A DNA stretch of 64,000 bases from an uncultured virus (IMG/VR IMGVR_UViG_3300020472_003601) (lineage: Duplodnaviria > Heunggongvirae > Uroviricota > Caudoviricetes). The notes beneath the pieces are model-generated. The model had not been told where the DNA came from. It did no database searches and saw only the letters and a list, made by a program, of their open reading frames with translations. The stretch lies in IMG/VR virus record IMGVR_UViG_3300020472_003601; one strand, written 5' to 3'. Below are positions 9,235-64,000 of this stretch, piece after piece; position 1 is the first letter of the stretch; the number at the start of each line of letters is the position of its first letter. Both the position numbers and the translations under genes were made by a program.

Positions 9235-9663
9235 TTATCCCACGCCAACAGAGCCAGACCAACTTGGCCCTTTCGAGCCGCTAACATGATCTGTTGAGAT
9301 GTTTGTTAGTCCTGCTATGATATCGCAATTTTCGGAGTTATATAGCCAAATTTCACCTACTTTAATGTTGAATCTAGATTCAACACTTTTGCGTCCGGGA
9401 GCAAGAGGTCCGGTATTGTGGGAAGCTACTCGAAAATAATTACTACCTTTGACACCAGCCTCGGAAAAACCCACCTTTAATGATCGAAGTTCTGAGCGAT
9501 TTATAACAGTAATCCATTCTGTGACATACGGGAACACAACTCTGAGGGGGTCGCTTACACACTCGATGCTTCCACTAACAAAGGGTATGCCGGCTACTTC
9601 GTATGCGGGAGCATAGTTGAGTCCCGGCTCGTTTTTCCACGATGGTCTCCAATTATTCGCCAT
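9235..9663 (-). CDS. Hypothetical protein, probably virion-associated
   Basis: 142-aa ORF with AGGAG RBS, a late-like motif upstream and three SGS tripeptides. Confidence 0.7.
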   Translation of the reverse strand: MANNWRPSWKNEPGLNYAPAYEVAGIPFVSGSIECVSDPLRVVFPYVTEWITVINRSELRSLKVGFSEAGVKGSNYFRVASHNTGPLAPGRKSVESRFNIKVGEIWLYNSENCDIIAGLTNISTDHVSGSKGPSWSGSVGVG

Positions 9664-9695
9664 ATTATAAAACTCCTAAATTTGTTATTCTCTTA

Positions 9696-9703
9696 TAAAT
9701 AGT
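9696..9703 (-). promoter_or_regulatory. Candidate late-promoter motif ACTATTTA
   Basis: Intergenic, about 33 nt upstream of the 9663 start. Confidence 0.55.
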
Positions 9704-9726
9704 CATCTCTTTTTTCTATTCAGAAT

Positions 9727-11031
9727 TCAGATATCTAATTTTATCTTAAAAGTAAGATCTTGGTCTTCTTCCTTCAAAACAGGATCGGCAATTGAGGCTA
9801 CTCCAATTAAATTTTTATCATTGTCATATATTCCGATCTTGCTAACATAAACCTGCCTTGTAAAAGAAGCACTGTAATCTGAATAGCTCGAACTCACAGT
9901 GTTTTTTATTAGGCGCGCGGAGTTTTCTTCATAAACGTGAGATGATGTAAACGAAAGTTGACGTTGCCCTTTCTTTAAAAATGTTGGATTGTGAGAGAAA
10001 TTTACTTTACCTCTTTTAGCATGTGCTAACATACTAATGGTCTGAGTTTTGGTGGTCCCTTCGAATTCCAGCGTGTAAGCCATTTTTGCCCACCTTGATG
10101 ATACTGAAATTGGGTTGGTTCCTACATAGGACGCACTGGTTAAGCCGTCATTACATCCAGCTCCCCAGAAGCGCCATCTGGGAAATTGCTCGCCTGCAGG
10201 CGTTGTTCCTCTTAGGTTTCCAACGCCAACATTACCAATCGGCCACGAACCAGTCAACAATAAGAATCCTTCATCGTACAAAACAACACCTGCCACACTA
10301 GAAGAAACATTTTGATAGAATTCTCCTGCCTTACCGGAGCCGGCTGGATAGTATTGTTTGCCTGAGATTTGTATTAATTCCCCATTCTCTTTTGAGTCCC
10401 TTAGTTCTCCCAAAAGCGTTCCCGTGAAATACATCTTCATGGAAACGGTTCCCGGCTTAATTCGCGTACCATAAAAAATGGACGGAATATGAATTAAATT
10501 TAAATATTGGTCATTCTTGTCTCCATACGCAGAAGAACTCACCCTATAGTGGGCACTTCGAACACCATACAAGTTGAGTGTATTCTTTAATGACACAAAA
10601 CTCATCTTATCAGCATAATCTACTGCGCTGGGGATGTCGATCCACTGTCTTGTGATGCTGGCGTACTGAGGGTAGCTGCCGGATATCACATCTCCCCAGC
10701 CGAATTCGTTATTAAAAACGGCGCCTGTGATTGCTACTGTATTTTTGAAGCTTATTCTCGAACTTTCCTTGGTTATAAAGGGGTAGATCATTGGATTCAG
10801 TTCCTCATCATCGGCATAAGGAGGAAAGGAATTGATAGTTCTATCAATATTATATTCGTAAAGACTGACAAACCCGCCACTTAACATAGTCACGTTGCCG
10901 CAAAATGCTCCAGACTGAATTGTTCGGTTGTTGTAGTAAACGTCTGAATCATATATCACAAACTCACTTCTTGGGTGAGCTTTCATCGTGTTGATATTTA
11001 CATCATTTGGCTCAAACTTCCGGAAAGCCAT
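9727..11031 (-). CDS. Putative tail/baseplate structural protein (paralog of 11033-12100)
   Basis: The C-terminus NFSHNPT...YVSKIGIYDNDKNLIGVASIADPVLK...FKIKLDI matches its neighbour. Confidence 0.65.
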   Translation of the reverse strand: MAFRKFEPNDVNINTMKAHPRSEFVIYDSDVYYNNRTIQSGAFCGNVTMLSGGFVSLYEYNIDRTINSFPPYADDEELNPMIYPFITKESSRISFKNTVAITGAVFNNEFGWGDVISGSYPQYASITRQWIDIPSAVDYADKMSFVSLKNTLNLYGVRSAHYRVSSSAYGDKNDQYLNLIHIPSIFYGTRIKPGTVSMKMYFTGTLLGELRDSKENGELIQISGKQYYPAGSGKAGEFYQNVSSSVAGVVLYDEGFLLLTGSWPIGNVGVGNLRGTTPAGEQFPRWRFWGAGCNDGLTSASYVGTNPISVSSRWAKMAYTLEFEGTTKTQTISMLAHAKRGKVNFSHNPTFLKKGQRQLSFTSSHVYEENSARLIKNTVSSSYSDYSASFTRQVYVSKIGIYDNDKNLIGVASIADPVLKEEDQDLTFKIKLDI

Positions 11032-11032
11032 T

Positions 11033-12100
11033 TTAGTAATCCAATCGAACTCTGATTGTTACCTCATTTTCGGGAGTCTTCTTGAGCGGCTCTGAAAGTT
11101 TCGCTACTGCTACCAATTCGTTCGCTGCATTGTATAAGCCAACAGTAGTGATATAGGTTACGGGCTGATCTGATGCTACATTTTTAACTCTTATCTTTCC
11201 TTGGTTTAGATAAGTGGGGTTCGTACTGTAGTTAAAGTCGGCATGCCCCACTCTACAAAAGAAAATTTGAGAGTTAATCGCCGTAGTGTTGTTGAAAGAT
11301 AAATTCTGGAGGCGGTGGCGGAATGCGTCAGCAGTGCCGGAAATTGTACCTTTCGTCATTTGATCTGCGACCGTCCATACTCCGGAAGAGCCGCTAGCAA
11401 AAAACTGCTGGGTTCCTTCTCCGTCGCCAGAAGCAGACTGAAAGCACGAAGCAGAAAGCCAAATCTGGCCGCCCTGATACCACACAATTCCGCCATTTAG
11501 TCCATTGGCATCAGTCAAAACTCCATATTGTCCGCCGTCTGTAGTTTTTGTGCCGGCGCCGGTGGCTGTGGCAGCGGAATCCTGAAACGTACGTACTTTG
11601 CTGAATGGTGTGGCGAATGCTCCGTTTCCGACCGTTATGCTGACTGAGCCTTTCTTGATCTCATCTTTGACCAATAAAGAAGAGAGGCATATGTTAAACA
11701 TGTCATTTATTTGATTGGTTCCGTCTAAATTTAAATCAGTTTCAGCAGCTCTAACGTTGCGATCTCCGCCGCTAGCGGAATAACCAACCATCATAGAAGA
11801 CAGCATATTCCAATTGTTTCTCTTTTTCTTATATTGAGTTGCAGAGGTGGAATATAGTACAGATTTGTTCGGGTTCAATCCCATCGTGATATCAAAAATG
11901 TGATTCGCCGAAGAACTCAAAGTGGGATAGTCGTATACACTTTGAAATTGTCCATGCGTATAGTTTTTGACATTGTCGTCATTCGGCCATGTGCCGTAGA
12001 CACCACTCACGATAGTTCCCGTAACCGGGCAGGATTCATGTAGAAGTGTTCTGGTTGTAGCCCTATCTCTAGGACCTATAGGTTTATAAGTTTTTGCCAT
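11033..12100 (-). CDS. Putative tail/baseplate structural protein (paralog of 9727-11031)
   Basis: C-terminus FNYSTNPT...YITTVGLYNAANELVAVAKLSEPLKK...IRVRLDY; Ser/Thr/Gly-rich. Confidence 0.65.
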   Translation of the reverse strand: MAKTYKPIGPRDRATTRTLLHESCPVTGTIVSGVYGTWPNDDNVKNYTHGQFQSVYDYPTLSSSANHIFDITMGLNPNKSVLYSTSATQYKKKRNNWNMLSSMMVGYSASGGDRNVRAAETDLNLDGTNQINDMFNICLSSLLVKDEIKKGSVSITVGNGAFATPFSKVRTFQDSAATATGAGTKTTDGGQYGVLTDANGLNGGIVWYQGGQIWLSASCFQSASGDGEGTQQFFASGSSGVWTVADQMTKGTISGTADAFRHRLQNLSFNNTTAINSQIFFCRVGHADFNYSTNPTYLNQGKIRVKNVASDQPVTYITTVGLYNAANELVAVAKLSEPLKKTPENEVTIRVRLDY

Positions 12101-12112
12101 TTATTAGCTCCG

Positions 12113-13117
12113 TTAACTGTTTTTCTTAATAATTCGAAGTGGAAGTTCGAGTGTAGCACCGTTCGACCACTCAAGCTGCACCATTGTATCGATGGTCCTA
12201 AACGTTCCGGAGCCGGCTCCAAAAAGTTCAGTTGCGGTTACCGAGGTTCTGCCGCGCTCAGAATAGTGGGTATCTGTGAGTACTCGAGTATTAAAGTTCA
12301 ATTTAACAACTCCCGCTCTCGCTGAGGCAATAACAGAATTAGCTGTAACTGCTTCGTTGTCGTTTTCTCTGTATATCATCTGATTGTTGATTACCTTAAC
12401 TGTGGCAGTTCCAAAATTTGAATTGCCGGCGGAAGATGCAATGCCGGCGCTAGTAGGACTCAGCGGTAAATTGATTTGGGCGCGCCCGTTACCTCCGTTA
12501 TTATTAAAATAAGATCCTCTGGCTGGTCCTAAGACTTGCGCCAGTAGACTTGTATTCATCCTAACACGAAGATTGGAACCCATGAGTCCTTGAGAAATAA
12601 TATCTCTTTGTTTCGTTTGTTGATCGCCGGCGCCTGCAGTTTCATCGTTTATGCCGGTCTCGATTACAATCCCTAATCCATTTTGAAGTCCGGATTCTAA
12701 AACGTAGGTTTCGCCGGTAATTGCTTTTATGGCGGGGGCTGTGACGCCGTCATTGACAGCCAAATAATAAATTCCTTCCCATGGCTTTACACACTGCTGG
12801 GGTAAAAGTTCGTTTACTTTTGCTTGAACCATGTACAGGGTGTTCAGGTTTCCTCGTGTTGTGAGTCCGTATCTTCCGATGGGAGTCATCATTGACTGAG
12901 GCTGCATTATAGGAGTTTGCATTATCTCAAGATCTGCATATGCAGATCCTGACACGTTATTTTTATCATAGAGTGCATAATCTATTTCATCATCAAACAC
13001 GCAAAATTTTACAATTTGGGTACCCAGCCCTGTTCCACCCGTTGCTCGGGCGCGACCGACCGCGGTGAGAGTGGCATATACTATAATATCACCTGAATTA
13101 TCCAAAAAACTCGACAT
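12113..13117 (-). CDS. Putative tail structural protein (LT..GR..FxxxDDEIDY family)
   Basis: The N-terminus ATLTAVGR...KFCVFDDEIDY and the C-terminus IDT...LPLRIIK are shared with 13195-14286. Confidence 0.65.
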   Translation of the reverse strand: MSSFLDNSGDIIVYATLTAVGRARATGGTGLGTQIVKFCVFDDEIDYALYDKNNVSGSAYADLEIMQTPIMQPQSMMTPIGRYGLTTRGNLNTLYMVQAKVNELLPQQCVKPWEGIYYLAVNDGVTAPAIKAITGETYVLESGLQNGLGIVIETGINDETAGAGDQQTKQRDIISQGLMGSNLRVRMNTSLLAQVLGPARGSYFNNNGGNGRAQINLPLSPTSAGIASSAGNSNFGTATVKVINNQMIYRENDNEAVTANSVIASARAGVVKLNFNTRVLTDTHYSERGRTSVTATELFGAGSGTFRTIDTMVQLEWSNGATLELPLRIIKKNS

Positions 13118-13135
13118 TTATTTACCTCGCTATAA

Positions 13136-13180
13136 TAATTAGTGCTTTTTTCGTTAAATAGATTCTAACATCATAATTAT
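13136..13180 (-). promoter_or_regulatory. Cluster of three candidate late-promoter motifs
   Basis: ATAATTA (13174-13180), CTATTTA (13155-13161) and ACTAATTA (13136-13143) in a 77-nt intergenic gap. Confidence 0.5.
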
Positions 13181-13194
13181 CTTCTTTTAAGTTT

Positions 13195-14286: not shown

Positions 14287-14290
14287 TTAT

Positions 14291-17512: not shown

Positions 17513-17513
17513 T

Positions 17514-19645: not shown

Positions 19646-19664
19646 TTTAAATACCTCTTGTTAT

Positions 19665-19671
19665 TAAATAG
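19665..19671 (-). promoter_or_regulatory. Candidate late-promoter motif CTATTTA
   Basis: Intergenic, 20 nt upstream of the 19645 start. Confidence 0.5.
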
Positions 19672-19691
19672 AGTTTTCTTATATTTGTTGT

Positions 19692-24083: not shown

Positions 24084-25096
24084 ATTTCTATATCTCCTTC
24101 AGCGCTACCGTATATATCATAGTACAAACTCTGTGTTTCATCTTCATGACAATCAAAATCTAAATCAATATAATAAGAGCCTCTGGAAAACTCTTCGGCG
24201 CCCTTGCACGCAGTTTCTTGCTCTACTTCACTATCCGTAAAGATGTCAAAATAATATTCTACACTACTTGTGGTCAGACTTACAGTAGAATTTTGTTTTT
24301 GTGTTTCGGATATCATGTAGCCATTTACAATTTGTTGTTCTTTCTTTTCAAAAAACTTTCTTGTCAAAGTATTATCTGTTCCAGATAGAAATACTTCTAT
24401 TTCAAAATTTTCTGTCAATAGGTCTGTGTTCAGTTCTTCGGTGTACACCAGTAAATTATTTTCAACGACTCTTAATACCTTATTGTCCGAAAAAGTCGGG
24501 GTCGAGCCAATAATTTCATACGCGGAATGAGGATCGGGCACAAATCTTTTATGATCTACCTTTTTTATATAATTAAGCACAACATCTATTTGGGGAATTT
24601 CCTGATTGCTTGATGTGTCCATCGTTGATGAGCCCGAGATGTCTCCCACTAATGTGACCAGCTTCCATGCTGGGGCTGCTTGTTGAGTTTTGCCGTCGAA
24701 GTGAGCATCTCCAATTGCTGAATCAAATCTAAAAAAATCTGCGGCAGGGATCTGAATTTCAGGACTAAGATCGATTGGGAAATATTTATCTTTCGTACCG
24801 GCGTCGGCGCCGGCGGTTGATGTAAGTCTTTCTTCTATTGTTGACATTCCCGGATCGTCAATTATGAAGTCAAAATGAGTTTGTGTTGCCAAATATTGGG
24901 TGTCATCTTTTATTCGAGGGCGAATGTCGTTTTGGAATTCGTCCTCTATGCCTCCACATGTGGAATCATAAATAATTCCCGAATCATAGAATGCGTAATA
25001 GACTGGCTTAAAGTTTCCATTTCCTAATTTATATCTCCCATAAGGAGTAAGTTTGAAATCTATTACACGCTCTTTCTTATCCAACAACTTGGGCAT
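24071..25096 (-). CDS. Putative tail structural protein (distant member of the LT..GR family)
   Basis: The N-terminus IDFKLTPYGRYKLGNGNFKPVYYAFYDSGIIY resembles 13195-14286. Confidence 0.6.
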   Translation of the reverse strand: MPKLLDKKERVIDFKLTPYGRYKLGNGNFKPVYYAFYDSGIIYDSTCGGIEDEFQNDIRPRIKDDTQYLATQTHFDFIIDDPGMSTIEERLTSTAGADAGTKDKYFPIDLSPEIQIPAADFFRFDSAIGDAHFDGKTQQAAPAWKLVTLVGDISGSSTMDTSSNQEIPQIDVVLNYIKKVDHKRFVPDPHSAYEIIGSTPTFSDNKVLRVVENNLLVYTEELNTDLLTENFEIEVFLSGTDNTLTRKFFEKKEQQIVNGYMISETQKQNSTVSLTTSSVEYYFDIFTDSEVEQETACKGAEEFSRGSYYIDLDFDCHEDETQSLYYDIYGSAEGDIEICQD

Positions 25097-28000
25097 TAAT
25101 ACTTACCTCCTTTTCCTTTTTTTCTAGCTCCAATTCTGGAACTCATCTTTCTTGTTCGTTTTTTGTCGCGATTTGCTTTTTGCTGTTCCTTATTCTCTAT
25201 TTTTCTCTTATTCTCTTGTTGTGCTTGAGTGCCCGGGCGGAAGAGGACTTCAACGTCAAGGCGCGCCATTTCCACCAAAGAGATATAATCATATGGCCAG
25301 TTATATTGTATGGGATACTCGCGTATGTGAGGCTTAAACGGACCAGAATCCAAGTTGGGGGCACCTATGTCGCGGCGCTCAGAAGGCGCTACATTCGCCT
25401 GATCAGGGATGTGATCATAATAGTCCGACTTAGCGCGCTGTTTGACCTTAAAGACCATCCACCTAAGCTGTTCCGTGGTTAGAATATTCTGGGAACTCAG
25501 AAGTTCTTGGTTTAATAAATTGTGTGCAACAGCGGTTTTTTTCATTCTAACTTTTCTAGAATCGCGAGGTGCTAAATTTTGATATATGTAGGATAGATCG
25601 TCTTTGTCTAACTCGTATTCGAAGGGAAAAATATACATGACAAGAGGTTCTATATTTGGATTATGTACCCAGTCAAGCTGGGGAGGCAGGACAAATTCTT
25701 CCATTCTGTCTGCCAATGTGCGAATTGACATGCCCGCCTCTTTGAGCGAATTGCCGGCTTTCGTTCCCACATTTTCCTTGAGTGCTGCCTGAACTCTTGT
25801 TTTTGGGATGTTTATGAATTTCTTGGACGCTCTTCTTTCGGGTGCGCAATTATCAAGCGTGCTACCCGACGCAGCTCCTCTAACCACGTACGGAACAGCA
25901 ACGACTGCTTCTTTTAAGGTAAAGTTTTCAGCTAATTCTCCCAAATTCATCTGTCGATTGTTCCTGTCAAATCCAAGAAGTTTTGCGAGAGACTTTGTCG
26001 AAGTAGCTACTTTGTTTGCATTTTCTGGATCGTAATTGTTGTAGATGGATGACTCGTTTACCACCTTGTAGTGATATTTCAACCACTGAGTAACACCGCC
26101 GGCGCTATCGCCCGGGGCGTCGATTGAAATTTTTGGATATTCTTGTTGTGATGTTGGATAGGCTCCAAATTGCTGCCAGATACCTCGGTTCACTGTCGCA
26201 CTAGCATAGTGAGGCAATGTGAGGGTGCCTGCTGTGACACTAATTGGTCGTATTCCTTGATCGGAAAAGTTAAACGTTGGGGTTTCGAACTTCGGAGAAA
26301 TTACCATTCGACTGCCCACGGTCTCGTTTGTTTTAGATTTTACCAAATTGTTTTGATCGCGTTCTTCTTTATATACTCTTTCTACTCCAAAATAATTTAG
26401 GGTTGCTGATAACTGCATAGATACTTGGTTAATCATATTTCCATCATAGTATTTTGGCGCTGCAGTCGAGGCGGTGATTAGACATGGACCCGCCCCGGAG
26501 CCGGTTACAGCGCCGGCGTCAAATCTCCAAGTTCTAATTTTCGTTTCAGCTAAGATTCTTTCAAGATCATATTTTTCAGTAATTTTTCCGTCAGATGCAG
26601 AGGGATAGAACCAGCAATCAATCCAAGCCTCTCCATCAGCATGAGGAGGGGTGTAAAGCGGATTGCACCCAACAAAAGAGTCTGGTACGCTTTTATTTCC
26701 ACCAATTTTATCACCAGTAGCCCAGATGCCGCTCGCTCGACCAGCCACAGCAATTGAAGAATAAGCAGTGGGTCTGGTGCACATGGTCTGTGTGCGTTTG
26801 AAATCAGGATTGTACATTGGCCATTGTGGAACATTAAATTCCCCACTTCCAAAGCCGTACGTCGTAGTGTTCCCCTCAACGCCGGCGTTGTCCCAATATT
26901 TTGCACCGAAACGACCCCAAGCGTCATTTGTTCCATCAGAGCCAACCTCGTTTTCTCTTCCCAATTTTCCATTACTAGGCGGCACTATCTTTATTCGCAT
27001 GAAATATCCTCCGCCGGCTTGTCCTTCTGTCGTACTGGAAAATGTAAGGTCCTTTGGTACCACGTTGGATTTAAGGGAGCTGAACGTGCCGTCTTTTAAG
27101 AAAATATTTGGAATCTCTCCCAAAAAGTTTCTAGCAAACAATGTGTATGATTCTTCATCGGCGGAAGCTCCAAAAATAGTTTGGGCGCCCTCATAAGGAT
27201 TTGCTGCGTTCGAATAGTATTGGTTGATTAGGGTCCCAGAGGGGTGGGGCTGCATATCATAGAAACTGATACCATCCAAGTACTTGGCTGGTTCTAAAAT
27301 TGTCTCAAAGGGAAGCTTAAGAAACGGGCTATTTCCCAAGAATCCCTGTTGTGGGTATTTGGCTCGACCTGCGGGAGTGTTGGCATAATCGCTGCGATCT
27401 AGTATGTTTGATGGGGTTAGTGCCCAATTGTTTGTCTGGGGCGTTGGCGCATTTGAAAGGTCTGGTCCGAACCAAGTGCCGGATATCTGCGTATTATCAG
27501 TAATGATTGGATAATTGCATGCAACACCAGCCTTTAAAGAATTGAATAAGATTCCGGGAGAATACAACGCTTCGTAAAGAGGTCTTAAACATCCGCCATT
27601 TTCTTCAAAGAGGGCTGTGCCGCTCATTTTTTCGCCGCGGAAATAACCAGTTATTTTGTCTCCATAAGATTTAGAGAATTGAGCAACAAGATCTGTGGCT
27701 CTCTGCGCAGGGTAGAACGATGGGTCGGGTCGGTATCTAATTGCCGCATCACATGTCAGGCGAATTTCTTTCGCATCTAAGAGTTGTTTTTGAGAAATCT
27801 CTAAGAATCCCTTAAGGAAATCGCTGTTTGTATAGGTTTGGTAGAAATTGGATTTGCTACTATCGATAGATGCGGCGCCCTTCGGATCCTTAAGAGGATC
27901 GACACCGGGGAACCCAAGCCAGTTTGTGAGTCCTTTGTTGTTTACTCCGAATGATAAATAGTCCTCCACATGATCACTAATTCTAAATTCCGGTAGAACC

Positions 28001-31000
28001 GAATATCCCTTAGCCATTAATTTAAGATCTTGCCAATATTCCTCATATGTATTAAACCATGGAGCACTGGCGCTTAGTTGAAATTCTGCTTGTTGTGTTG
28101 TGGAATTATAGACCACTATGCCGGCATTATTGGGTGTATCTGATTGCCAAGAAGCCTCACCTCCATATATCTCTATTTGTTCTGCAGGGTCAAAAGTACC
28201 GGAGCGACTGCCGGTTGCAGGGATATCTTGACAACCCATTTTAACTACGGACGTAGGTGAACTTATCATGTGTTTAGCCCACCCTAATGGTCCCGGGGTC
28301 AAGCTTCTCATTCTTCGGAACTTTTCACTTACAGCCATGCCATCGACGGCAGTTCCAACCATGTAGGAAAATTTAGCATTCTGAAGGCTTCCTCCATAGC
28401 CACCATATTTAAGAGTGGTCTCGTTATTTGAATTGATCTCCATGGGACTGCCGCGATTTAAGAAATTAATGCGACCAGAATAATTCTGATCAAACGGCGA
28501 GGTACCGCCCGGAGGATCGAGACACCAAGAGCTTTGCGAAACGGTTACTCCGCCGACACTTATAGCACTATATTCTTCTCCGAGCGTAATACGCCTGTCG
28601 GGATCGCTGTTCCATACGTTATTTTTATACGTAGCAGTGCGATCGTTTCCGGTCGACCATGCTGCGAATTCATTTTTCATCGATGGAAAAACATTTTGAT
28701 TATATATAACAAATCTCGTATCCCAAAAGGCGCCTCGGTTGACTGCTAAAATTTGATCGAAAGGAGTCACACATGTTTTCATCTTGGTGATGTTGTTTAA
28801 TGTGTTTTCATTGAAAAAGATATTATCGTTTTGATGAGTTACCTTGAGTGTTGCGTTGTTGTGTGGTTTTTTTATAGATAGTCCGGGCGAATTGAAATTG
28901 ATATATTGAGGTCGACCCTTTAAAGAAACAGGGGGAAGTCGATACCCCTCTAAGAGCGCTTGTCCAGAACGAGAAAGAGCAGTAATAGTGTTAAACTCTC
29001 TTTCATTTCGGAGCACTGGGTGTGACTCGATTCGTGATTGCTTCCAAGTCCAAAATTTATTGCCTCGCTTAGTCAATAACAAATTAAGATAATCAGCGCT
29101 GCGTATGTTTGGATTCAGAGCTGTATTAAGATAATTTGTCGTATTTGAACTCAAGGGGTACCCAAGTGTGTTTGTCGCGGCATCACTAACCGCACCAGTT
29201 ACAGAATCAAGGGTGAGAGTATTTAACACATTTAAAGGTTGCGTGCCTCCCGAAAATGCAATGTCGTCCGCACCAACTACTACATCGCTCTGGTTAAGAA
29301 AATTATAAAAATAGGATAATCCGTCGGAAGCCGACAGGTACGGGGAGAGCCTGTTAAGATCAGTTCTTTGGAACCCGTTATACCGTATCAAGTGGCTATT
29401 CGGCACAGAGTCTCCGATCCAGCTATATTGCCTGTCCGCTCTTGGGATCTGGTGTGTTAAAAAGAAATTATCATACAGCTGATTTGCACACACTAACTCA
29501 GTAGTACGAGACGCTGACACATATGCTATTTCCACAGGATTTCCTCCCGGGGAACTAGCACTTATAAAATATAGCAGAGAATTGGCATTCGTAGTAGCAT
29601 CACCTCGAATCTCGTAATCATTGTTACCCATCTGATCATAAAACTTGGCTCCCCACCCGGCAGTAATTGACGATATTTCAGACAACAATGTTGGATCCGA
29701 TGGGGAGAGGGAGTCACCGAACCTCATCCATGTCACAAGATTATCAGTTTTGGGAGCGATTGTGCCAGTAAGGTTTAAAATGCCGGCATTGGAATAAACT
29801 GTGTTGATTTCTTCTGACGTCAGCACTGCATCGTAAATAGCCATTTCATCTAAGTCTATATTTTTAGATTGCTTAAACTTTGTGGTATTGCCCCTGTTGG
29901 TGCCGCCAATATAAGATTTGCCACCGCCCATGCTATTGACTGAGGCCATGGCGGCTTGAGGTGTGGTTGGGTACGCTCCGCCGGATGAAGTAGCTTCAAG
30001 TACACCATTGATATAAAAACTTGGCTCATTGCTTGCCGCGGCACCATCATAAGTTACTGCAACATGATACCAAGTATCTGTCGCCAGTATTGTGCTCGAC
30101 TTCCACTTGCCTTTATTGTTTCCTGTATCTGTAATCCAAAGTGACACCCTTTCATCACTTTCAACATATACAGCTAGCGCTTGGTCTTGGTTTGTATTGG
30201 CGCCGTTATCCCCGAGAGTAACAAGAGCCAAAGAGTTTCCGGTACCCAGAGGAGTTCGCAATCTAAGCCATGTGCTAACGGTCCATGTGGTTGTGGTTAT
30301 AGCGCTACCATTTTTGGTGAATGATCCTGAGTGATAAAGTTTTCCATTTTTCTCGGCAACCACATATGAGCCTGATCCGAACTGAAGTCCGCGCGCATTT
30401 TCAATTCCCGTATTTAGATTATAGGATGTGGTTTCTTCGCCGCAGCCGATCATTCTCTGCTTGTTGTTGCGATTGATTTTGTGCCATCCGGGTGGTTGAT
30501 CATACGAGGCGCCCGGACCATTTGTTGCAGCAGAGGTGCCAGTGACTTGCAGAGAGTCGCGACCAAACCGAGCAGTGTGGCGCGCCTCGTGGGACCATAG
30601 ACCATAATCTAACCCATGAATATCATATACGCGCATCTCGGAGGGAGAGCTTCCCACAGGCTGAGATAACGTGCCTGATGGACCTTGTGAGGGCTTCAAT
30701 ACCGACCAGTTTCTATAAGGGACAGCATTGTAAACGGAGTACTCTGCTGATCTAAAATCATTATAGCCCAATGTCTGTTGATCGATGCCACCGGGCATTG
30801 AATATCTATTTGAAAAAACAGTCTGATTAGCTGTCTTATTAAGGTAGTCTGTAGAATAATCAGAAACCCACGTAAAGTGACCTTCGGTACCGCGGTGGAT
30901 ATCCCAAAATCCTCTTATGTTTGTTGCGCTCATCGCATTCTGTTGAAATGATTGGGCTGGTAACTCAGGTTGATTTTCAATAAACTGGCGAGGGTTGGCA

Positions 31001-34000
31001 TATGCGCCCACCGTACTTACAACTTCGTGATTGTAATTAAAGTTACCTAATTCGTGTGTACCTGCTATTACTTTAATATTTTTAATATTAACAGGACTCT
31101 GGGCTACAAAATCCCTGTAATATAGCGCTGGTTGTGACGCAGACAGCGGATATGCTGGTACTCCAATATCGTTTGCTTCAGGAAACGGATAAAAAGGATC
31201 GGTCAGACCGATGGCGCCATTTTCGGTACAATCAAGACAACCAAGGAGCAACTTGTCGCTCTCTGGGCGATTCATCCAGTTGTCAGTACCTCGGTTCACG
31301 GGAATATGCCGGACTTGTTTTCCTCCAACATTGTGATAAGTAAATGGACCCTGCATTCCGACGTTATTTTCTTCACCCCATCCCTCTGGGTGTCGGTTCG
31401 TTATCTCAACGCCGGGCATAAAGTCGCGTACAACGTTAATGTTATATCCCGTCTCGACAGTAGAACTCATAATATTGAACGGGAATGCGTGTCGAGTATT
31501 AGTATTAAGATATGTCAGACCAGATTGAAAATCTGGACCGTACATTACTTTGAATCTGCGGTGTTTCTTCTCTCTATAATCATTTGGTATGTTTTCTTCT
31601 TTAAAATCCCTTATGGGCACAATGTCTTCAGCTTTAGCCAACAAGACATTCAAAGGAATGAACGTATTATTTTCTTGACTGACGTGTCCCATACCCCTAA
31701 AGGTAGATGGTGCAAATTGAATATTTTTTGTTGGTGAATAATTGGTGCCGGCGTGGAATGAAGCTTTTAAAATTTCATTTCCAGTGCTAACTGTGAAATT
31801 ATAAGGCGTGCCAAATCTATTTCGATTTAGGGAGGGGTGCGGATATTTCGTACCATCAGCGAGAGAAACCAGCGGTGTTGATTTGCTCACATGTGGAGTA
31901 GAGTATATAACATCTTTGAATTTTAGACGCTGAGAGTTTACGTGCGTGGCTGCGGTACCGTCTGAAAATGACGCTGAGATTTCATCTGCGGACGGTAGGG
32001 CACGTTCCTGCCAGAATTTTTCCCTTACGGTTGTTGGTCGCGGGGATGACGGAGGAGGCGATGAGCCATAAAACCATGGGTACACCCTCTCGGAAACGCC
32101 GACCATTTCGGCATCCAAATCATCTATTACAAAATCTAGTGTGGGGAACTTGCTTCTATATTTGTTTCTCTCTAGAACATGGCTCTCAATAACATTCAAA
32201 ACTCCATCGTGGAATTCAGCAGATGCCGGTACAAGCTGAGAAACTATATCAGTCAGCGCATCATCAAACCATCTGTAGTATGAGATATACTTTTCAACTG
32301 TACTGAGAGATGTCACTCTTCTAAAGAACGATTCTCTCAACTTCTCCATGTCTTTATAGCGCCCACGATAGCGGTTTATAGGGGAACCAATGATATTATG
32401 GAAATCTATTGCTCCAGCAAAAAAGTCAAGCATTTCTTCCGAAACCGCATTATAGAGACTCTTTTCGATAGAGTAGACAAAGTTTGGAATTATTTCTTCT
32501 TTCTTTAGGTTGGGGAACAACTCATCAGTATCAGAAAAAACCTGTACCATGTCAGACGAAACTGCCTGTTCAGGATTTATGAATTTGTGTGCATTAAACT
32601 CTTTTTGATCTATGTTGGTCGAACCAAAGCCATAGCCTCGACCAGTATTTTGATATCCTATGATGTATCCTAACCAGCCTGTTTCTGTGCGGTTTGTGGT
32701 CGAACCAGAACTAAAGTCTTGAACGTTGAAAGTTCCGGGCGTCGTTGTCGACCCTGTGAGCGCTAGAAAATTCCAATTCAGCGCAAGAGTCTCATTTTTA
32801 GTCATTTCGGCATTCGTATCATACCAAGAAAGAGCAGACAGGTTTTGATAAGATCCGGAAATTCCGGCATTTTCTGGGTCGAGTGTGTGCTGCAGAAGGT
32901 CGTCGTCTTCAAGATATCGTAGCCAGCACTTTGTCGAAGAAATGAGCACGTCCGACTTGCTTTCGATTGCGCCCGTTACATTGGTCCTGCGGGCGCCGAC
33001 ATATAATCTTTTGGCGGCCCCCAAGAAATTTCTGGCTATCTGGCTATCTATGGAGGCTGTGACAGTAAAACTGTTGGCGATCGCTGTCGAAACAGTGTTT
33101 ATGCCGGAAAATACGAGATCATAATTATCATTTGTGGGGGCGGCGCCTGAGATGAATCCAGCAAATGGATAGCGCGCGGGCTTCAGTCTTACAGATAGAT
33201 TCCACAATTCGTTATTATATACGTTCAAAAATGTGCTACTTGTAAGCTCAACTCCGAAGCCCGGTCCAAGAGAAGATGTTAGTTTGAATGACACGTTTCT
33301 TGAGTTATGATCATCTCTTATTGCATATACTTGAAAATTGGCTTTATCGTAAGCGAGAGTGGTGGTATCTGTTCCGTGTTTCGAGCCAGTACTGCCGGTA
33401 TTCACCATGTTCATACCATATAAAGATACTTTCTTAAAAGATCTATCTAGCTTGTCGTAGCTTTTCATAAAATGCGGGAAGATTACATTCGTTTCAGCTG
33501 TGAACCCATACTTATCTTCGTTTTTATAGGTGTCTCCAACTTTCAGTGAAGACGAATGTAAGTATCCGGAGCCGGCGGGAGTCTCAGCGACTCGCTTAGA
33601 TGAATAGACAACACCCCCAACATTATCTTTGTGGTTGAGATTCAAGCAATTCTTGTTTGTAAGTGTTTGACGTAAATTGTTTCGAAGAACATATTCATTA
33701 TTATTTGATTCGATCGATACGCGCAATATTTTGTCATCAATATTAAAGCATCTAAAAACGTTTTTAATAGATTTTTCGGTACCTTTAGATTTAAAAATAT
33801 CAGCAAGATTATTGTATAAATTAATATAAATTAAATTCTTAACTTCATTTAAATTACCTTCGAACAGTTCGGTATCTGTTCGATTTGCAAATTGTTCTAG
33901 AACTTTGGAATCTATAAACAAATCTGGCGTATATAGACCTAATGATTGCGGAAGGTGTTTCGCATAGGTATACGGCTTATGTGATGCGCTTACATAATTT

Positions 34001-35607
34001 TGATGCCTTAAGGTCGGTAATTCCGACATTTGAAGATACAGTTTATCAAAATAGGCGCCTGCTATATGGGCTATATTACTTAAATCGCTCGTTTCGTTTG
34101 TGTCTTGTTCATCCAGTATCCAGCCCGGGACCAGACTTAAAAATGAGGCGTTGTTATTCGCATCATGATAAGAGCCACTCTCTAAAAGTCCCGTCTTAAG
34201 ATCAGAGACTGCAGGGTTGGCGGCGTATATAATAGGATCTTTGGTTTCGGTCGATGCGGCGCCGGCTTCCACTATCGCTGAATTGATGTTTCTTGAATCA
34301 CTGGTGTATCCGGTCCACGATCCATTGCAAATTCTCCCGCCATAGTCGAGCACAGTCGAATCAATGCTATGGTCGCCTGTTATGCCTTCGTTAAATTTGT
34401 AATACATTCCTAAAGTGGTATTTGCTATATCAGTATTGACACCACCATGAACCGGAGTAAACCAATAACGACCAATTTGTTGTCCGTTTCTCGCGACTTT
34501 CCAAAATCTGAACTCGTCCATAGACCCTGATAGTTTTCCAGAGCCGGCTTTACCGCCGGTGGTGGTTTCAGAAGCTAGGGCGCCTATGCGACCAAACATA
34601 TTCTTAGGATGAAGCTCACCAAGTGTTCCACCCCAAAGGCGCGTGTCGTTTAGTCCGCCGTTAATATACAACTTACTTACCAAGTAACTTCCTGACTGCT
34701 GGAAAGATATTGCGTAATGGTTCCATTCCTGTAATTGTCCGCTATCTAGATTTTGTCCTATGGCGCTGTCAATAAAGCCACTGGAGCCGGAACGAACAGT
34801 AATAAGAAAAGGGGTACCAGAGGCATCGGCCGCAGTAGAACTAGTGAGCGCAATTCTTAGTCTTCCGTAATCTGCTTCAGCAATCTCATTGGTGTTGTGC
34901 ATATCGAAAACAACCTGCTTGTCTGAAAGAATATCACCACCAAAGCCCAAAGACCCTGTCTTAAGCCAAAATTCAACCGTGACGCCATCATCAAAATTAG
35001 CTCTTAAGTTTGACGTCCGGGTACCAGAACCATAATCCGAAGGCAATCCTGCGTCTCTGTATATGTCCTCATCATAGATATTAGAAGACTGAATTTTGCT
35101 GCTCTTGGGATCGGGCATCAATTGTTGGACTGTTGTACCTCCGGATCCTGTATTCGGTCCTGCAAAAAAATCAATGTATTCACGATATGCTGTTTGTGGG
35201 GCGCCGTATCCGGAAGTTCCGTCTAAGTCTGGTGTGTCAGATCCATAGCCCGCTACGTTAATGTTTATGTATCCGTTTGTTTTTGGATAGAGGTTGTCTA
35301 AAATATACTTTTCTATATTAAGGCTTTGATTGTGAAATTTATTTATTTCAGCATCTGATCCGTCATAGGGATAGTAATCTATAATTCTATTCATCGCGGA
35401 TTCATAATAAAGATATGCAGAGCCAAATCTAGCAAAATTCTTAGGATCTCCATAATCTACATGGGGAATATTTTGCTCTTGCTTCCGCGTTATTTGTTGT
35501 AAATTTCTAGATGACTCGATGTCTTCATTGAAGGCTTCTTTTTCATCTTTATTTGACAGATAGTTTCTTTCACTGTCAGATACTCCGAAGAGTTTTTTAA
35601 TACTCAT
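25096..35607 (-). CDS. Giant baseplate/tail protein with LamG (concanavalin A-like) domains
   Basis: 3503 aa. LamG motifs: TVEFWLK..WNHYAISF..LYINGG..MDEFRFWK and WTVSTWL..TWYHVAVTYDG..FYINGV..DEMAIYDAVLTSEEI. IFKSKGTEKSI resembles the wedge motif of T4 gp7 / P2 gpI. Confidence 0.75.
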   Translation of the reverse strand: MSIKKLFGVSDSERNYLSNKDEKEAFNEDIESSRNLQQITRKQEQNIPHVDYGDPKNFARFGSAYLYYESAMNRIIDYYPYDGSDAEINKFHNQSLNIEKYILDNLYPKTNGYININVAGYGSDTPDLDGTSGYGAPQTAYREYIDFFAGPNTGSGGTTVQQLMPDPKSSKIQSSNIYDEDIYRDAGLPSDYGSGTRTSNLRANFDDGVTVEFWLKTGSLGFGGDILSDKQVVFDMHNTNEIAEADYGRLRIALTSSTAADASGTPFLITVRSGSSGFIDSAIGQNLDSGQLQEWNHYAISFQQSGSYLVSKLYINGGLNDTRLWGGTLGELHPKNMFGRIGALASETTTGGKAGSGKLSGSMDEFRFWKVARNGQQIGRYWFTPVHGGVNTDIANTTLGMYYKFNEGITGDHSIDSTVLDYGGRICNGSWTGYTSDSRNINSAIVEAGAASTETKDPIIYAANPAVSDLKTGLLESGSYHDANNNASFLSLVPGWILDEQDTNETSDLSNIAHIAGAYFDKLYLQMSELPTLRHQNYVSASHKPYTYAKHLPQSLGLYTPDLFIDSKVLEQFANRTDTELFEGNLNEVKNLIYINLYNNLADIFKSKGTEKSIKNVFRCFNIDDKILRVSIESNNNEYVLRNNLRQTLTNKNCLNLNHKDNVGGVVYSSKRVAETPAGSGYLHSSSLKVGDTYKNEDKYGFTAETNVIFPHFMKSYDKLDRSFKKVSLYGMNMVNTGSTGSKHGTDTTTLAYDKANFQVYAIRDDHNSRNVSFKLTSSLGPGFGVELTSSTFLNVYNNELWNLSVRLKPARYPFAGFISGAAPTNDNYDLVFSGINTVSTAIANSFTVTASIDSQIARNFLGAAKRLYVGARRTNVTGAIESKSDVLISSTKCWLRYLEDDDLLQHTLDPENAGISGSYQNLSALSWYDTNAEMTKNETLALNWNFLALTGSTTTPGTFNVQDFSSGSTTNRTETGWLGYIIGYQNTGRGYGFGSTNIDQKEFNAHKFINPEQAVSSDMVQVFSDTDELFPNLKKEEIIPNFVYSIEKSLYNAVSEEMLDFFAGAIDFHNIIGSPINRYRGRYKDMEKLRESFFRRVTSLSTVEKYISYYRWFDDALTDIVSQLVPASAEFHDGVLNVIESHVLERNKYRSKFPTLDFVIDDLDAEMVGVSERVYPWFYGSSPPPSSPRPTTVREKFWQERALPSADEISASFSDGTAATHVNSQRLKFKDVIYSTPHVSKSTPLVSLADGTKYPHPSLNRNRFGTPYNFTVSTGNEILKASFHAGTNYSPTKNIQFAPSTFRGMGHVSQENNTFIPLNVLLAKAEDIVPIRDFKEENIPNDYREKKHRRFKVMYGPDFQSGLTYLNTNTRHAFPFNIMSSTVETGYNINVVRDFMPGVEITNRHPEGWGEENNVGMQGPFTYHNVGGKQVRHIPVNRGTDNWMNRPESDKLLLGCLDCTENGAIGLTDPFYPFPEANDIGVPAYPLSASQPALYYRDFVAQSPVNIKNIKVIAGTHELGNFNYNHEVVSTVGAYANPRQFIENQPELPAQSFQQNAMSATNIRGFWDIHRGTEGHFTWVSDYSTDYLNKTANQTVFSNRYSMPGGIDQQTLGYNDFRSAEYSVYNAVPYRNWSVLKPSQGPSGTLSQPVGSSPSEMRVYDIHGLDYGLWSHEARHTARFGRDSLQVTGTSAATNGPGASYDQPPGWHKINRNNKQRMIGCGEETTSYNLNTGIENARGLQFGSGSYVVAEKNGKLYHSGSFTKNGSAITTTTWTVSTWLRLRTPLGTGNSLALVTLGDNGANTNQDQALAVYVESDERVSLWITDTGNNKGKWKSSTILATDTWYHVAVTYDGAAASNEPSFYINGVLEATSSGGAYPTTPQAAMASVNSMGGGKSYIGGTNRGNTTKFKQSKNIDLDEMAIYDAVLTSEEINTVYSNAGILNLTGTIAPKTDNLVTWMRFGDSLSPSDPTLLSEISSITAGWGAKFYDQMGNNDYEIRGDATTNANSLLYFISASSPGGNPVEIAYVSASRTTELVCANQLYDNFFLTHQIPRADRQYSWIGDSVPNSHLIRYNGFQRTDLNRLSPYLSASDGLSYFYNFLNQSDVVVGADDIAFSGGTQPLNVLNTLTLDSVTGAVSDAATNTLGYPLSSNTTNYLNTALNPNIRSADYLNLLLTKRGNKFWTWKQSRIESHPVLRNEREFNTITALSRSGQALLEGYRLPPVSLKGRPQYINFNSPGLSIKKPHNNATLKVTHQNDNIFFNENTLNNITKMKTCVTPFDQILAVNRGAFWDTRFVIYNQNVFPSMKNEFAAWSTGNDRTATYKNNVWNSDPDRRITLGEEYSAISVGGVTVSQSSWCLDPPGGTSPFDQNYSGRINFLNRGSPMEINSNNETTLKYGGYGGSLQNAKFSYMVGTAVDGMAVSEKFRRMRSLTPGPLGWAKHMISSPTSVVKMGCQDIPATGSRSGTFDPAEQIEIYGGEASWQSDTPNNAGIVVYNSTTQQAEFQLSASAPWFNTYEEYWQDLKLMAKGYSVLPEFRISDHVEDYLSFGVNNKGLTNWLGFPGVDPLKDPKGAASIDSSKSNFYQTYTNSDFLKGFLEISQKQLLDAKEIRLTCDAAIRYRPDPSFYPAQRATDLVAQFSKSYGDKITGYFRGEKMSGTALFEENGGCLRPLYEALYSPGILFNSLKAGVACNYPIITDNTQISGTWFGPDLSNAPTPQTNNWALTPSNILDRSDYANTPAGRAKYPQQGFLGNSPFLKLPFETILEPAKYLDGISFYDMQPHPSGTLINQYYSNAANPYEGAQTIFGASADEESYTLFARNFLGEIPNIFLKDGTFSSLKSNVVPKDLTFSSTTEGQAGGGYFMRIKIVPPSNGKLGRENEVGSDGTNDAWGRFGAKYWDNAGVEGNTTTYGFGSGEFNVPQWPMYNPDFKRTQTMCTRPTAYSSIAVAGRASGIWATGDKIGGNKSVPDSFVGCNPLYTPPHADGEAWIDCWFYPSASDGKITEKYDLERILAETKIRTWRFDAGAVTGSGAGPCLITASTAAPKYYDGNMINQVSMQLSATLNYFGVERVYKEERDQNNLVKSKTNETVGSRMVISPKFETPTFNFSDQGIRPISVTAGTLTLPHYASATVNRGIWQQFGAYPTSQQEYPKISIDAPGDSAGGVTQWLKYHYKVVNESSIYNNYDPENANKVATSTKSLAKLLGFDRNNRQMNLGELAENFTLKEAVVAVPYVVRGAASGSTLDNCAPERRASKKFINIPKTRVQAALKENVGTKAGNSLKEAGMSIRTLADRMEEFVLPPQLDWVHNPNIEPLVMYIFPFEYELDKDDLSYIYQNLAPRDSRKVRMKKTAVAHNLLNQELLSSQNILTTEQLRWMVFKVKQRAKSDYYDHIPDQANVAPSERRDIGAPNLDSGPFKPHIREYPIQYNWPYDYISLVEMARLDVEVLFRPGTQAQQENKRKIENKEQQKANRDKKRTRKMSSRIGARKKGKGGKY

Positions 35608-37174
35608 AACTCTCTACTCTAAATTTAAATGTTTCTCTTTGTTCAGTCCAGCTTTTCAATTCCGGATCATAAAACGCAAACTTAAAAGCATATGCGTATC
35701 CCGCTTCCAAGAGGCTCATGTCGAAGTCAAAATAATTACCAGACACATCATAAGACAGACCGGTAGCATAAGTACTACCTGTCGCATATGGTACTGCGTC
35801 TAATCCGTCGACAAGTCTATAAACCCTGTATGATGCACTGGGTATCGACAACGTTTGAATAGTGTTGGACGCTACCGTGTATATTGTGGGTTGCCAATTC
35901 TTTTCTCTCACATACAGATTGAATCTAGCAGTTTCATCTGACCGATATCGATCTCTAAGGTTTGTGACACTTAAATAGTGGACAGGTTCACGCGTATTAA
36001 TTGAACCAAGGAGAGTTTTCGGCTTAATGGAGCTAGTGAAATATTCAGTTCGGGTACCGCTGGAAGAGCTGGACCACACATCAAATAGAGTTGTAAGAGG
36101 AGTAGAAGCCGCCGTTATTGATAGCGAGGCTGAATATATGCCAGTAGATACATGACCGCCTGTGATGCTTGTATTGCCGTCGTAAAGTACCAATTTTGAA
36201 CCCGTGGGGGATGTTGAGCCGGAATACAAGCTAATGTCAATGTTGCCGGTACCAACCGCAGGAACATTAACCAGACGTCCGCGGACATAGTTGTATAGGT
36301 AAATAGTATTCATGTTGTCGGCGGAGGGTGCTAGGGAGCTGCTATAATAGAAATCACCGCGGTCGTCCCTTTTGATGGAGTTCCAATGTGCTTCAATTAC
36401 CGGCTTCTTAAAGAAGTATTCTGTGCCCCGGGCGAACAATCTTTTCGTATAGTAAGATTTTTTTGCACCATCGCGATTATCTAAGATACTGCCAGTTGTT
36501 ACACCAACACCAAGCGAGCTTGAATAGTAAGCTTCATAAGCTGCTGAAAGATGAATTCCGACACCATAACGATCGAGATCCCCTGATATCCACAACTCTA
36601 CCAAATCAGATATATCAATTTTAATATCTTCTAAGCCGGTTGAAAATGTTTGTTCATACGTCGGAACACCAGAGCCAGTGTTATATGAGCCTCCAACGAT
36701 GCTATCTCCATTCAGTGATTTCCACGTTGTGCCCTTGCTGGCATTGATCCAGTTCGAACCGATTCCCTGTTTGGTTTGATCTTTGTAGCCTTCCAGATCC
36801 AAACCGGTGCCTTCTTGCCAAGATTGCGAAACCGGGTACACTACTAATTTATAATCTCGTGGTACCGTCTTTGACGTTTCAGCATTGTGAATCTTCAACC
36901 ACCAACTTACACTGCCTGATGCGGCGATCTTGCCGTTTGAGCGATCTGTCACCATGTCTGCAATTGGGAAGTTTATTATAATTCTAGATAACTCTGAAGA
37001 GCGTACTGAGGCTTCGCCCTTGGATCCGCTGCCGAATTGTCTTCCGTAAATTGAAAAAATCTCCATAACATCTGCGGCGCCGCAGTTGGCGCCAGTACCA
37101 CGTGTTCGAAGGTTTGGCTGGAACGCATCAACAATAGTATTGTTGGCGTTGGCTGTATACTTCTTGATTCCCAT
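35597..37174 (-). CDS. Baseplate-associated structural protein (beta-rich, possibly DNRLRE-like N-terminal domain)
   Basis: 525 aa directly after the gp6-like gene. SRIIINF, YPVSQSWQEGTG, IDISDLVELW and KPVIEAHW resemble DNRLRE-type domains. Confidence 0.55.
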   Translation of the reverse strand: MGIKKYTANANNTIVDAFQPNLRTRGTGANCGAADVMEIFSIYGRQFGSGSKGEASVRSSELSRIIINFPIADMVTDRSNGKIAASGSVSWWLKIHNAETSKTVPRDYKLVVYPVSQSWQEGTGLDLEGYKDQTKQGIGSNWINASKGTTWKSLNGDSIVGGSYNTGSGVPTYEQTFSTGLEDIKIDISDLVELWISGDLDRYGVGIHLSAAYEAYYSSSLGVGVTTGSILDNRDGAKKSYYTKRLFARGTEYFFKKPVIEAHWNSIKRDDRGDFYYSSSLAPSADNMNTIYLYNYVRGRLVNVPAVGTGNIDISLYSGSTSPTGSKLVLYDGNTSITGGHVSTGIYSASLSITAASTPLTTLFDVWSSSSSGTRTEYFTSSIKPKTLLGSINTREPVHYLSVTNLRDRYRSDETARFNLYVREKNWQPTIYTVASNTIQTLSIPSASYRVYRLVDGLDAVPYATGSTYATGLSYDVSGNYFDFDMSLLEAGYAYAFKFAFYDPELKSWTEQRETFKFRVESYEY

Positions 37175-52576: not shown

Positions 52577-52577
52577 G

Positions 52578-53579: not shown

Positions 53580-53580
53580 T

Positions 53581-55255: not shown

Positions 55256-55256
55256 G

Positions 55257-56590: not shown

Positions 56591-56634
56591 TTTAGTGAAC
56601 TCCTTCTGCTGCTCTTCGATGACTGTTGTTTTTA

Positions 56635-57453: not shown

Positions 57454-57459
57454 GATTAT

Positions 57460-60147: not shown

Positions 60148-60148
60148 T

Positions 60149-63976: not shown

Positions 63977-64000
63977 ATCATCAACGTATCGTATATCTTA
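63973..64000 (-). CDS. Probable 3' end of an upstream gene
   Basis: ...KIYDTLMM* ends in a GTGA overlap with the next start; too short to identify. Confidence 0.3.

Follow-up and report, generated by a model that had tools for sequence, protein, structure and literature searches.

Why should one three-residue pattern, [S/T]-[G/A/S]-S, recur in some candidate virion proteins of a phage and stay rare in their neighbours? The question is raised by a 64-kb stretch of DNA from an uncultured virus (IMG/VR IMGVR_UViG_3300020472_003601; the whole stretch analysed is called the window here). Its lineage is that of a large myovirus distant from T4. The genes lie on the minus strand and include replication genes, a tail and baseplate block with gp25 and gp6, and an island of sugar enzymes from position 51734 to the end. 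The original prediction held that the tripeptides are sites of dense O-glycosylation of exposed tail and baseplate proteins by phage enzymes. The statistics of the motif and its joint loss with the island support that idea in part, but the candidate reader of the motif has moved outside the window. We consider it fairly probable that the virion surface is O-glycosylated in the cytoplasm at this sequon, the glycan being primed by a pair of glycosyltransferases (GTs) and extended by the island.

Motif excess in the window

Expected numbers of motif matches were obtained from 1000 shuffles of each whole protein. The main candidate substrate is a β-rich protein of 525 amino acids (aa) encoded directly after gp6 (35597..37174, minus strand). 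It contained 15 matches against 3.7 expected (P<0.001), at residues 49, 86, 166, 218, 227, 278, 318, 324, 348, 368-370, 380, 446 and 465. Since one SSSSS run holds three overlapping matches, these amount to 13 separate places, the number first counted by hand. A second candidate substrate, a giant protein of 3503 aa with LamG/ConA-like domains (25096..35607, minus strand), had 31 matches against 12.2 (P<0.001). Excesses were also found in two members of a paralogous tail-region family, of 434 aa (9727..11031, minus strand; 8 versus 2.0, P 0.002) and 355 aa (11033..12100, minus strand; 5 versus 1.6, P 0.010), and in a 142-aa protein with three SGS (9235..9663, minus strand; 3 versus 0.8, P 0.053). 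Heavy recurrence had been claimed for exactly these five proteins, and all five exceed composition-preserving shuffles. A 341-aa protein (24071..25096, minus strand; 3 versus 0.7, P 0.026) had been missing from that list. SbcCD had no match (1.0 expected) and gp6 had one (1.2 expected), as had been read by eye. Within 9235-37174 there was no enrichment in the proteins of 1073 aa (4 observed, 3.0 expected), 483 aa (3 and 2.5), 226 aa (0 and 0.7) and 1463 aa (0 and 3.0), and shuffles gave none for the 2374-aa protein of the window. The 31 non-structural open reading frames (ORFs) of the window together had 10 sites, with about 10 expected.

Several trivial sources of the excess were considered and rejected. 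Local patches rich in Ser and Gly do not account for it: shuffling within blocks of 10 or 20 residues left P=0.001 for the 434-, 525- and 3503-aa proteins and 0.017 for the 355-aa protein. The 142- and 341-aa proteins were not significant under these block shuffles. A DNA-level repeat was rejected because the 62 sites in five proteins are encoded by 61 different 9-base codings. The N-glycosylation sequon N-X-S/T was not in excess (108 versus 114 expected).

The motif was first picked by eye; hence we ranked all 8000 tripeptides over the 18 ORFs of 9235-49969. SGS, SAS and TGS took ranks 1 to 3, and in the window alone none of them passed Bonferroni correction (0.17, 0.9 and 1.1). The by-eye choice ceases to be a concern because independent data return the same motif on top. 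A degenerate-pattern scan of target families placed [ST][GA]S or [ST][GAS]S first in two related genomes, G001 (P 9e-25) and G007 (P 1e-20), and SGS was the top tripeptide in the cultured phage immuto (P 2e-18). Of the other tripeptides first proposed, TAS (5 versus 5.8) and SSS (10 versus 8.0) are unenriched in the window but enriched in the homolog families. The motif excess in the window proteins is confirmed as real and dependent on residue order.

Motif grammar and turnover among homologs

The excess is a property of families. Among 120 listed homologs of the 525-aa protein, the 119 of at least 450 aa all carried 11-22 sites (median 15, expected 3.2). In the best 150 of 1898 representatives the median ratio was 3.5, and two of the 150 had at most one site. 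The family of the giant protein had a ratio of 3.28 over 204 loci and that of the 355-aa protein 110 sites against 27.2; the families of the 142- and 341-aa proteins were enriched 4-fold and about 4-fold. Two unenriched internal controls of the window, the gp6-like wedge (37174-38970, minus strand) and gp25 (38986-39354, minus strand), had family ratios of 0.37 over 217 loci and 0.33 over 210 loci.

The grammar of the motif was derived from 184 and 125 distinct homologs of the 525-aa and giant proteins, respectively. TGS was enriched 7.9x and 5.0x, SGS 6.2x and 4.2x, SAS 4.3x and 3.2x, and TAS 3.0x and 3.6x. Related tripeptides gave much lower ratios: 0.35-1.8x for [ST]xT with x=G/A/S, 0.9-1.5x for the permutations GSS and SSG, and 0.4-1.3x for AGS, GGS, NGS, DGS and EGS. 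The motif therefore opens with S or T, continues with a small residue (G, A, S, also C) and has a strong preference for S at its third position. Ahead of the motif, position −2 favours aromatic residues and −1 aliphatic or aromatic ones. General O-glycosylation in Bacteroidota uses the sequon D-(S/T)-(A/I/L/V/M/T); the enriched motif here has no Asp requirement, and D/E are rare at −1.

Could such a pattern be a structural preference of β-rich tail proteins, an inherited feature of tight turns and close strand packing that no enzyme reads? Small residues are common in tail proteins, the control phage S-PM2 reaches 1.55x for [ST]GS, single control proteins are enriched (a 597-aa protein of P-SSM2, 20 versus 7.8), and sites 278 and 465 of the 525-aa family are nearly invariant. 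The positions otherwise turn over while the density stays. Across 60 sampled giant proteins, the N-terminal 1150 aa had 20.5 sites per sequence; these occupied 199 alignment columns, of which only 5 were filled in 80% or more. In the AlphaFold model of the 525-aa protein (predicted local distance difference test score, pLDDT, 77), assignment with DSSP put the sites in loops, strands and strand ends, with one family site at a helix start. A packing preference would also leave the demand for Ser rather than Thr at position 3, and the failure of Asp, Asn and Gly to substitute at position 1, without a reason. Alignable full-length homologs at 33-37% identity have 0-2 sites and often K/E/D in the same columns; the fold can do without the motif. 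Several genes, moreover, lose the motif together. For these reasons we give the structural explanation little credence. Conserved density, shifting positions and mixed structural context fit, we infer, an enzyme-read tag better than a fold element. The expectation that the sites would map to surface loops holds in part: they appear to lie in loops and at exposed-looking strand positions, as judged from DSSP and substitutions only.

The model of the 525-aa protein gave weak fold matches to a carbohydrate-binding module and to Ig/FnIII-like domains, and its PDB matches were weak. Pfam, PHROG and Atlas gave no name for the candidate substrate proteins apart from LamG, and tblastn with the 525-aa protein found no match in the phage collection. 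Its place in the gp25-gp6 operon suggests that it is a virion protein. The homolog of the 142-aa protein in G001 lies in the head-gene region and adjoins other motif-rich genes.

Protein families that carry the motif

We compared families with at least 3 expected sites in six near-complete motif-rich genomes, naming them by annotation or position. Enriched were the families of the 525-aa protein (4.9x), the 355/434-aa paralogs (4.0x), the 142-aa protein (4.0x), an unnamed head-region protein (3.8x), the 341-aa protein (3.8x), the neck adaptor (3.5x), the major capsid protein (2.5x) and the sheath (2.2x). At the neutral or depleted end stood portal (0.88x), tail tube (0.48x), the presumed tape measure (0.43x), terminase (0.42x), gp6 (0.21x) and DNA polymerase (0.14x). 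By analogy with T4, this split would match outer versus inner parts of the virion. Some enzyme families also exceeded 2x (helicase, 11 versus 4.1; epimerases, 21 versus 10.0). A general avoidance of the motif in gp6 was considered and rejected, as it holds in this lineage only.

The GT4 pair and the glycan island

What could read such a motif? In relatives of the window's phage the island is headed by two tandem GT4 (GT-B) genes, families f11 and f12. Across 26 island stretches only these two were constant (25/26; the window lacks that end), and the remaining families were hypervariable. All 13 f11 matches in GTDB genomes lay in phage synteny. When 109 core families were tested for presence in immuto, Mel-JY01, RM378 and the contig G069:C13, those found in all four were structural, packaging and replication families, the prohead protease, f11 and f12; no kinase or other modifying enzyme was among the families common to these four distant lineages.

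The sequence available for the window's own phage did not show the pair. The last 429 bases of the window (63572..64000, minus strand) are identical (429/429) to locus L573, which runs about 2.2 kb further. The GT2 domain at its end has its closest counterparts in the C-terminal domains of four f12-GT2 fusions (43-61% identity); the next match reaches 30%. The pair thus probably lies just beyond the window, and it is the best candidate for the motif reader. Neither tblastn with a short f11 piece against the phage collection nor the window end against viral_contigs gave a match. The GT2 domain fused to f12 in G001 was considered as a missing initiator and rejected, since the fusion is not general.

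The f11 model (pLDDT 89) is a generic GT4 enzyme. Its top Foldseek match was chlorovirus B736L, and its fold scores were Z 34 for sucrose-phosphate synthase, 20.6 for GtfA and 20.1 for T4 α-glucosyltransferase. GtfA ranked 43rd among the fold matches (root-mean-square deviation 3.6, 346 aligned), below many unrelated GT4 enzymes. Profile matches to 7ec1/7ec3/7ec7, which we take to be staphylococcal SdgA/B, were weak (E 0.002). Both pair members retain the acceptor-side motif E-G-F-G-L.

The pair adjoins a PD-(D/E)XK nuclease gene. At one locus (L521 10001-16672), the sole such case seen, seven ORFs are inserted between f11 and f12. At another (L519 6610-11041) a phage block with PhoH, the nuclease and a partial f11 stands among bacterial genes of the chromosome of a WOR-3 metagenome-assembled genome (MAG), as either an integration remnant or a misassembly. 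Upstream of the pair, G001 has a conserved 232-aa gene (41026-41724; L143 1026-1724) with a below-cut-off Pfam match to a zinc-metalloprotease-type domain (E 0.008); it went undetected in the four distant lineages.

The island itself had been put at 12 kb or more. Pfam confirmed 12.2 kb (51734..63976, minus strand), and the island continues past the window end, which cuts it. Its genes encode a UDP-sugar dehydrogenase, two epimerases, a heptose-type kinase, nucleotidyltransferases, phosphatases, WavE-like and cupin proteins, GT10, GT25 and GT47/RXYLT1-like enzymes, and a methyltransferase. Downstream it is bounded by a conserved block (50258..51513, minus strand) with a sigma-like gene (50258-50947), a membrane-anchored 114-aa gene and a zinc-ribbon gene, and in relatives the island always lies between the GT4 pair and this block. 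In L524 (G069:C13 100476-108871), part of a 109-kb phage-like contig in a Halobacteriovorax MAG with a strong motif, the island is upstream of the pair, not downstream. The sigma-like gene has in-match TAG stops in G047:C1:89411-90103 (two) and G061:C1:21426-22124 (one); genome-wide TAG recoding was rejected for both genomes, whose coding cover is already 0.93-0.95 under table 11.

The window island probably serves elongation rather than the reading of the motif. None of the island genes is universal: the commonest family, c8/f115, occurs in 15 of the 26 stretches and is absent from immuto, Mel-JY01, RM378 and G069, so that a single island gene as universal initiator was rejected. RM378 has the motif without an adjacent island, and P-SSM2 has an island without the motif.

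A simple hydropathy scan found at least 2 hydrophobic segments in just one of 431 island ORFs, and these showed no sign of flippases, polymerases or lipid-carrier/priming transferases. This bears on the idea that copies of the tripeptide across the virion surface let a partner, for example a decoration protein, a chaperone or an ion, dock non-covalently, the island serving to modify the host surface, which is the role usually proposed for cyanophage islands. Island-like clusters of jumbo phages have been interpreted as O-antigen or capsule modifiers (PMC7824862, PMC12801897), and the favoured aromatic residue at −2 and aliphatic or aromatic residue at −1 could suit a docking site. Islands with essentially no membrane proteins speak against such a role, a site of three residues that turns over freely offers little to dock on, and docking gives no account of why island and motif were lost together. 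We regard docking as very improbable.

Joint loss of motif and island

Eleven of 219 loci were motif-poor, with <0.5 sites per 100 aa in the homolog of the 525-aa protein, and the giant protein was also poor there; two more loci had intermediate density. Concerted loss across separate genes therefore points to a trans-acting factor. The f12-to-f3 interval was 14.7-19.4 kb in all five motif-rich genomes that allowed it to be measured (G004, by contrast, is split across its ends) and 437-509 bp in all eight genomes of poor or intermediate motif density (the sequence of G031 stops short of it). A further 50 contigs were selected for the length of their upstream sequence, and both the f12 and the sigma markers were present in 44; the interval between them was 6.1-24.5 kb in 43/43 motif-rich contigs and 729 bp in the sole motif-poor one. 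Equal enrichment in relatives without the island, which would have counted against the original prediction, was not found: all nine island-less contigs have lost most of the motif, though all belong to one clade.

Loss was partial in most of this clade: G034 still had 51 sites against 27.4, and G031 retains the motif in two proteins. A replacement motif was sought and rejected. None emerged from the pattern scan, and patterns of the [ST][GAS]S type were still on top in G034 and G036 (1.7-1.9x); in G030 they vanish. G030 also has three extra very large proteins (2898, 870 and 2267 aa; 68670-86868), common to G026 only.

Cultured relatives and control phages

An f11 search matched immuto, Mel-JY01 and RM378, more weakly TJE1, and the uncultured LR756508. 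The recorded hosts of the first three differ (Flavobacterium, Rhodothermus and Microcystis). These three phages resemble the marine relatives: a GT pair follows the nuclease gene, and virion proteins, identified by homology or annotation, carry the motif. They differ in that shared proteins have only ~25-47% identity and RM378 has no island beside its pair; the motif is present in RM378 all the same. Flavobacterium phage immuto 2-6A has the order nuclease, pair, island, as in the marine relatives; its pair genes are gp181 and gp180, those of RM378 p013 and p014. Its motif-bearing proteins are gp111 (7 versus 1.4), gp109 (10 versus 4.4), gp105 (7 versus 2.2), gp056 (17 versus 3.0), gp101 (60 versus 20.4) and the sheath (10 versus 4.0); its tube, portal, polymerase, GroEL, terminase and helicase had no motif. 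Mel-JY01 had 12 and RM378 6 ORFs enriched at P<0.03. The gene after gp6 was enriched at least 2.3-fold in 51/51 immuto-like and 34/34 Mel-like loci. In Mel-JY01 a 1226-aa ORF (PP395634.1 4750-8430; L347) has a second f12-like GT domain (E 3e-20) and directly follows a 508-aa protein with 24 motif sites against 7.5; the two are possibly a dedicated enzyme-substrate pair.

Genome-wide, [ST]GS stood at 2.0-2.7x in 10 of 12 pair-bearing genomes (G034 1.44, G030 0.74). It was 0.72-1.55x in P-SSM2, S-PM2, T4, phi4:1 and TJE1, which are without the pair (S-PM2, T4 and phi4:1 covered in part). P-SSM2 and S-PM2 had no f11 and no genome-wide motif excess; P-SSM2 carries a published sugar island (PMC12801897).

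Immuto also bears on whether pair and island might glycosylate phage DNA, the motif being unrelated. GT-B enzymes do glucosylate the DNA of T-even phages (PMC9614988), and the neighbouring nuclease gene would suit such a function. Immuto 2-6A has both pair and island, and the nucleosides given by liquid chromatography-mass spectrometry are dA, dC, dT and fdPreQ1, the accessible text reporting no sugar-modified base (bioRxiv 10.1101/2023.04.13.536721). DNA is therefore an unlikely acceptor; a low-level adduct could be missed. We attach almost no weight to this explanation.

Several observations weigh against glycosylation by the pair. In a gp6 tree built from 195 sequences, the motif-poor loci fall into a single nested clade (FastTree support 0.943), and because the island-less loci form one clade, the co-loss of island and motif counts as a single event. 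All eight motif-poor or intermediate genomes retain f11 and f12, intact-looking, and G030 has no motif excess (67 versus 73.7), yet the pair is present. Since this clade keeps the pair, the pair is not sufficient for the motif. LR756508, a partial counterexample, has f11 and an island, no detected f12, [ST]GS at 1.43x over 100 kb, and a homolog of the 525-aa protein with 1 site against 0.5. The f11 annotation of Mel-JY01 consists of two ORFs, 190 and 302 aa long (PP395634.1 83441-84932; L343 23441-24932), owing to either a true split or a sequencing error. Being that of a generic GT4, the f11 fold does not name an acceptor. The depletion seen in gp6 is absent from immuto-like (107 versus 88) and Mel-like (38 versus 38.5) loci, and charged residues at lost sites are in slight excess only (28-33% against a 25% background). 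Finally, all motif-bearing phages share ancestry, and motif and pair could have been co-inherited for unrelated reasons.

Some of these points would suit a modification site with another reader, such as a variable enzyme of the island or a transferase or kinase from the host cytoplasm, or one with a non-sugar adduct, the pair acting elsewhere. G030 retains the pair though not the motif, island loss tracks motif loss, and a host-made modification of a phage tail protein has precedent (PMC13445384). The absence of a universal island family, the motif of RM378 without an island beside the pair, the different recorded hosts, the lack of a kinase or modifying enzyme among the families common to the four distant lineages, and the lack of an excess in the Bacteroidota phage phi4:1 all argue against it. 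We judge another reader or adduct unlikely.

Other features of the locus

A 2374-aa protein of unknown family precedes gp25 (39396-46520), where the motif-poor clade has a different family of 1900-2300 aa. The ORFs of 398 aa and 372 aa (the latter an M23 peptidase; 46540-49969) have a duplicated N-terminal region in common. Many small genes of the window (1617-2534, 5864-7653) and of G001 (12868-22115) start with MKLLxENWRxF or a similar Glu-rich sequence, perhaps a tag for prohead packaging or cleavage.

Proposed mechanism and its implications

We propose that [S/T]-[G/A/S/C]-S is a dispersed O-glycosylation sequon on presumably outward-facing virion proteins of a lineage of large myoviruses that includes RM378, Immutovirus and Mel-JY01. 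In the host-cell cytoplasm the f11/f12 pair would read the motif and add the first sugar to one of its hydroxyls. The adjacent hypervariable island would make nucleotide sugars and add further sugars one at a time to extend and decorate the glycan, so that each phage would have a coat of its own. Such a coat may serve host recognition, masking, protease resistance or solubility. The island-less clade would have kept few or short glycans and left most sites to decay, an account that does not cover G030.

More tentatively, and with somewhat less than even confidence, we suggest that an old and widespread group of aquatic myoviruses, comprising marine phages of 190-200 kb, Immutovirus, Mel-JY01 and RM378, has a general O-glycosylation system of its own, cytoplasmic and directed by the sequon. 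The pair would read about ten virion families, with probably hundreds of sites per particle, and the island would be swapped as fast as an O-antigen cluster.

Sugar islands are frequent in large aquatic phages, and the host surface or DNA is the target usually assumed for them. Here a target, a sequon and enzymes can be named as candidates, all of them in the cultured phages immuto 2-6A, RM378 and Mel-JY01. If the proposal is true, a common group of phages has a variable glycan coat, a phage glycocalyx built on a new defined sequon, which could determine host range, protect against proteases or decoys, and alter virion recovery and counts. Site-directed glycoengineering in E. coli would also gain a compact tool in a soluble two-gene GT pair that needs a sequon of only three residues.

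Comparison with known systems

No paper on this motif was found in the literature searched, a search thin on subscription journals and supplements. Virion O-glycosylation by phage GTs is already known. In mycobacteriophages (Che8; Freeman et al. 2023) phage GTs modify the C-termini of capsid and tail-tube proteins (PMC12619734, PMC13445384). The likeness lies in phage-encoded GTs (GT10, GT25 and GT47-like in the window, the GT4 pair in relatives), O-glycosylation being proposed here from sequence. In contrast, the tail tube is depleted here (0.48x), and a short internal motif recurs tens of times over about ten families beside a large variable island; the major capsid protein stands at 2.5x.

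Other large aquatic phages have clusters of similar enzyme classes: T4-like cyanophages in their sugar islands and moraphages among their core GTs. The targets proposed for these enzymes are the host surface, DNA or the virion, and the accessible text of these reports names no sequon (PMC7824862, PMC12801897, PMC12619734). Unlike the phages studied here, the T4-like cyanophages P-SSM2 and S-PM2 lack both f11 and the motif excess. A cluster for host-surface O-antigen or capsule would differ in another way, since flippase, polymerase and lipid-carrier transferase were not seen among the island ORFs.

Chloroviruses and mimiviruses encode soluble GTs and sugar pathways that build virus-specific surface glycans at atypical sequons (PMC9614988). 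B736L, the top structural match of f11, comes from this group, its own activity being unsettled; chlorovirus glycans, however, are N-linked and sit on the capsid of a eukaryotic virus.

The best model for how the system may work is that of the serine-rich repeat proteins (SRRPs), in which GtfA/GtfB prime Ser/Thr in the cytoplasm and variable accessory GTs encoded on an island extend the glycan sequentially (PMC7661464). Two adjacent core GT-B genes with variable accessory GTs recall that arrangement. It differs in that the sites studied here are dispersed in folded virion proteins rather than in long repeats, in that Pfam found no SecA2/SecY2 among 43 window proteins, and in that f11 is not an ortholog of GtfA, being no closer to it than to many other GT4 enzymes.

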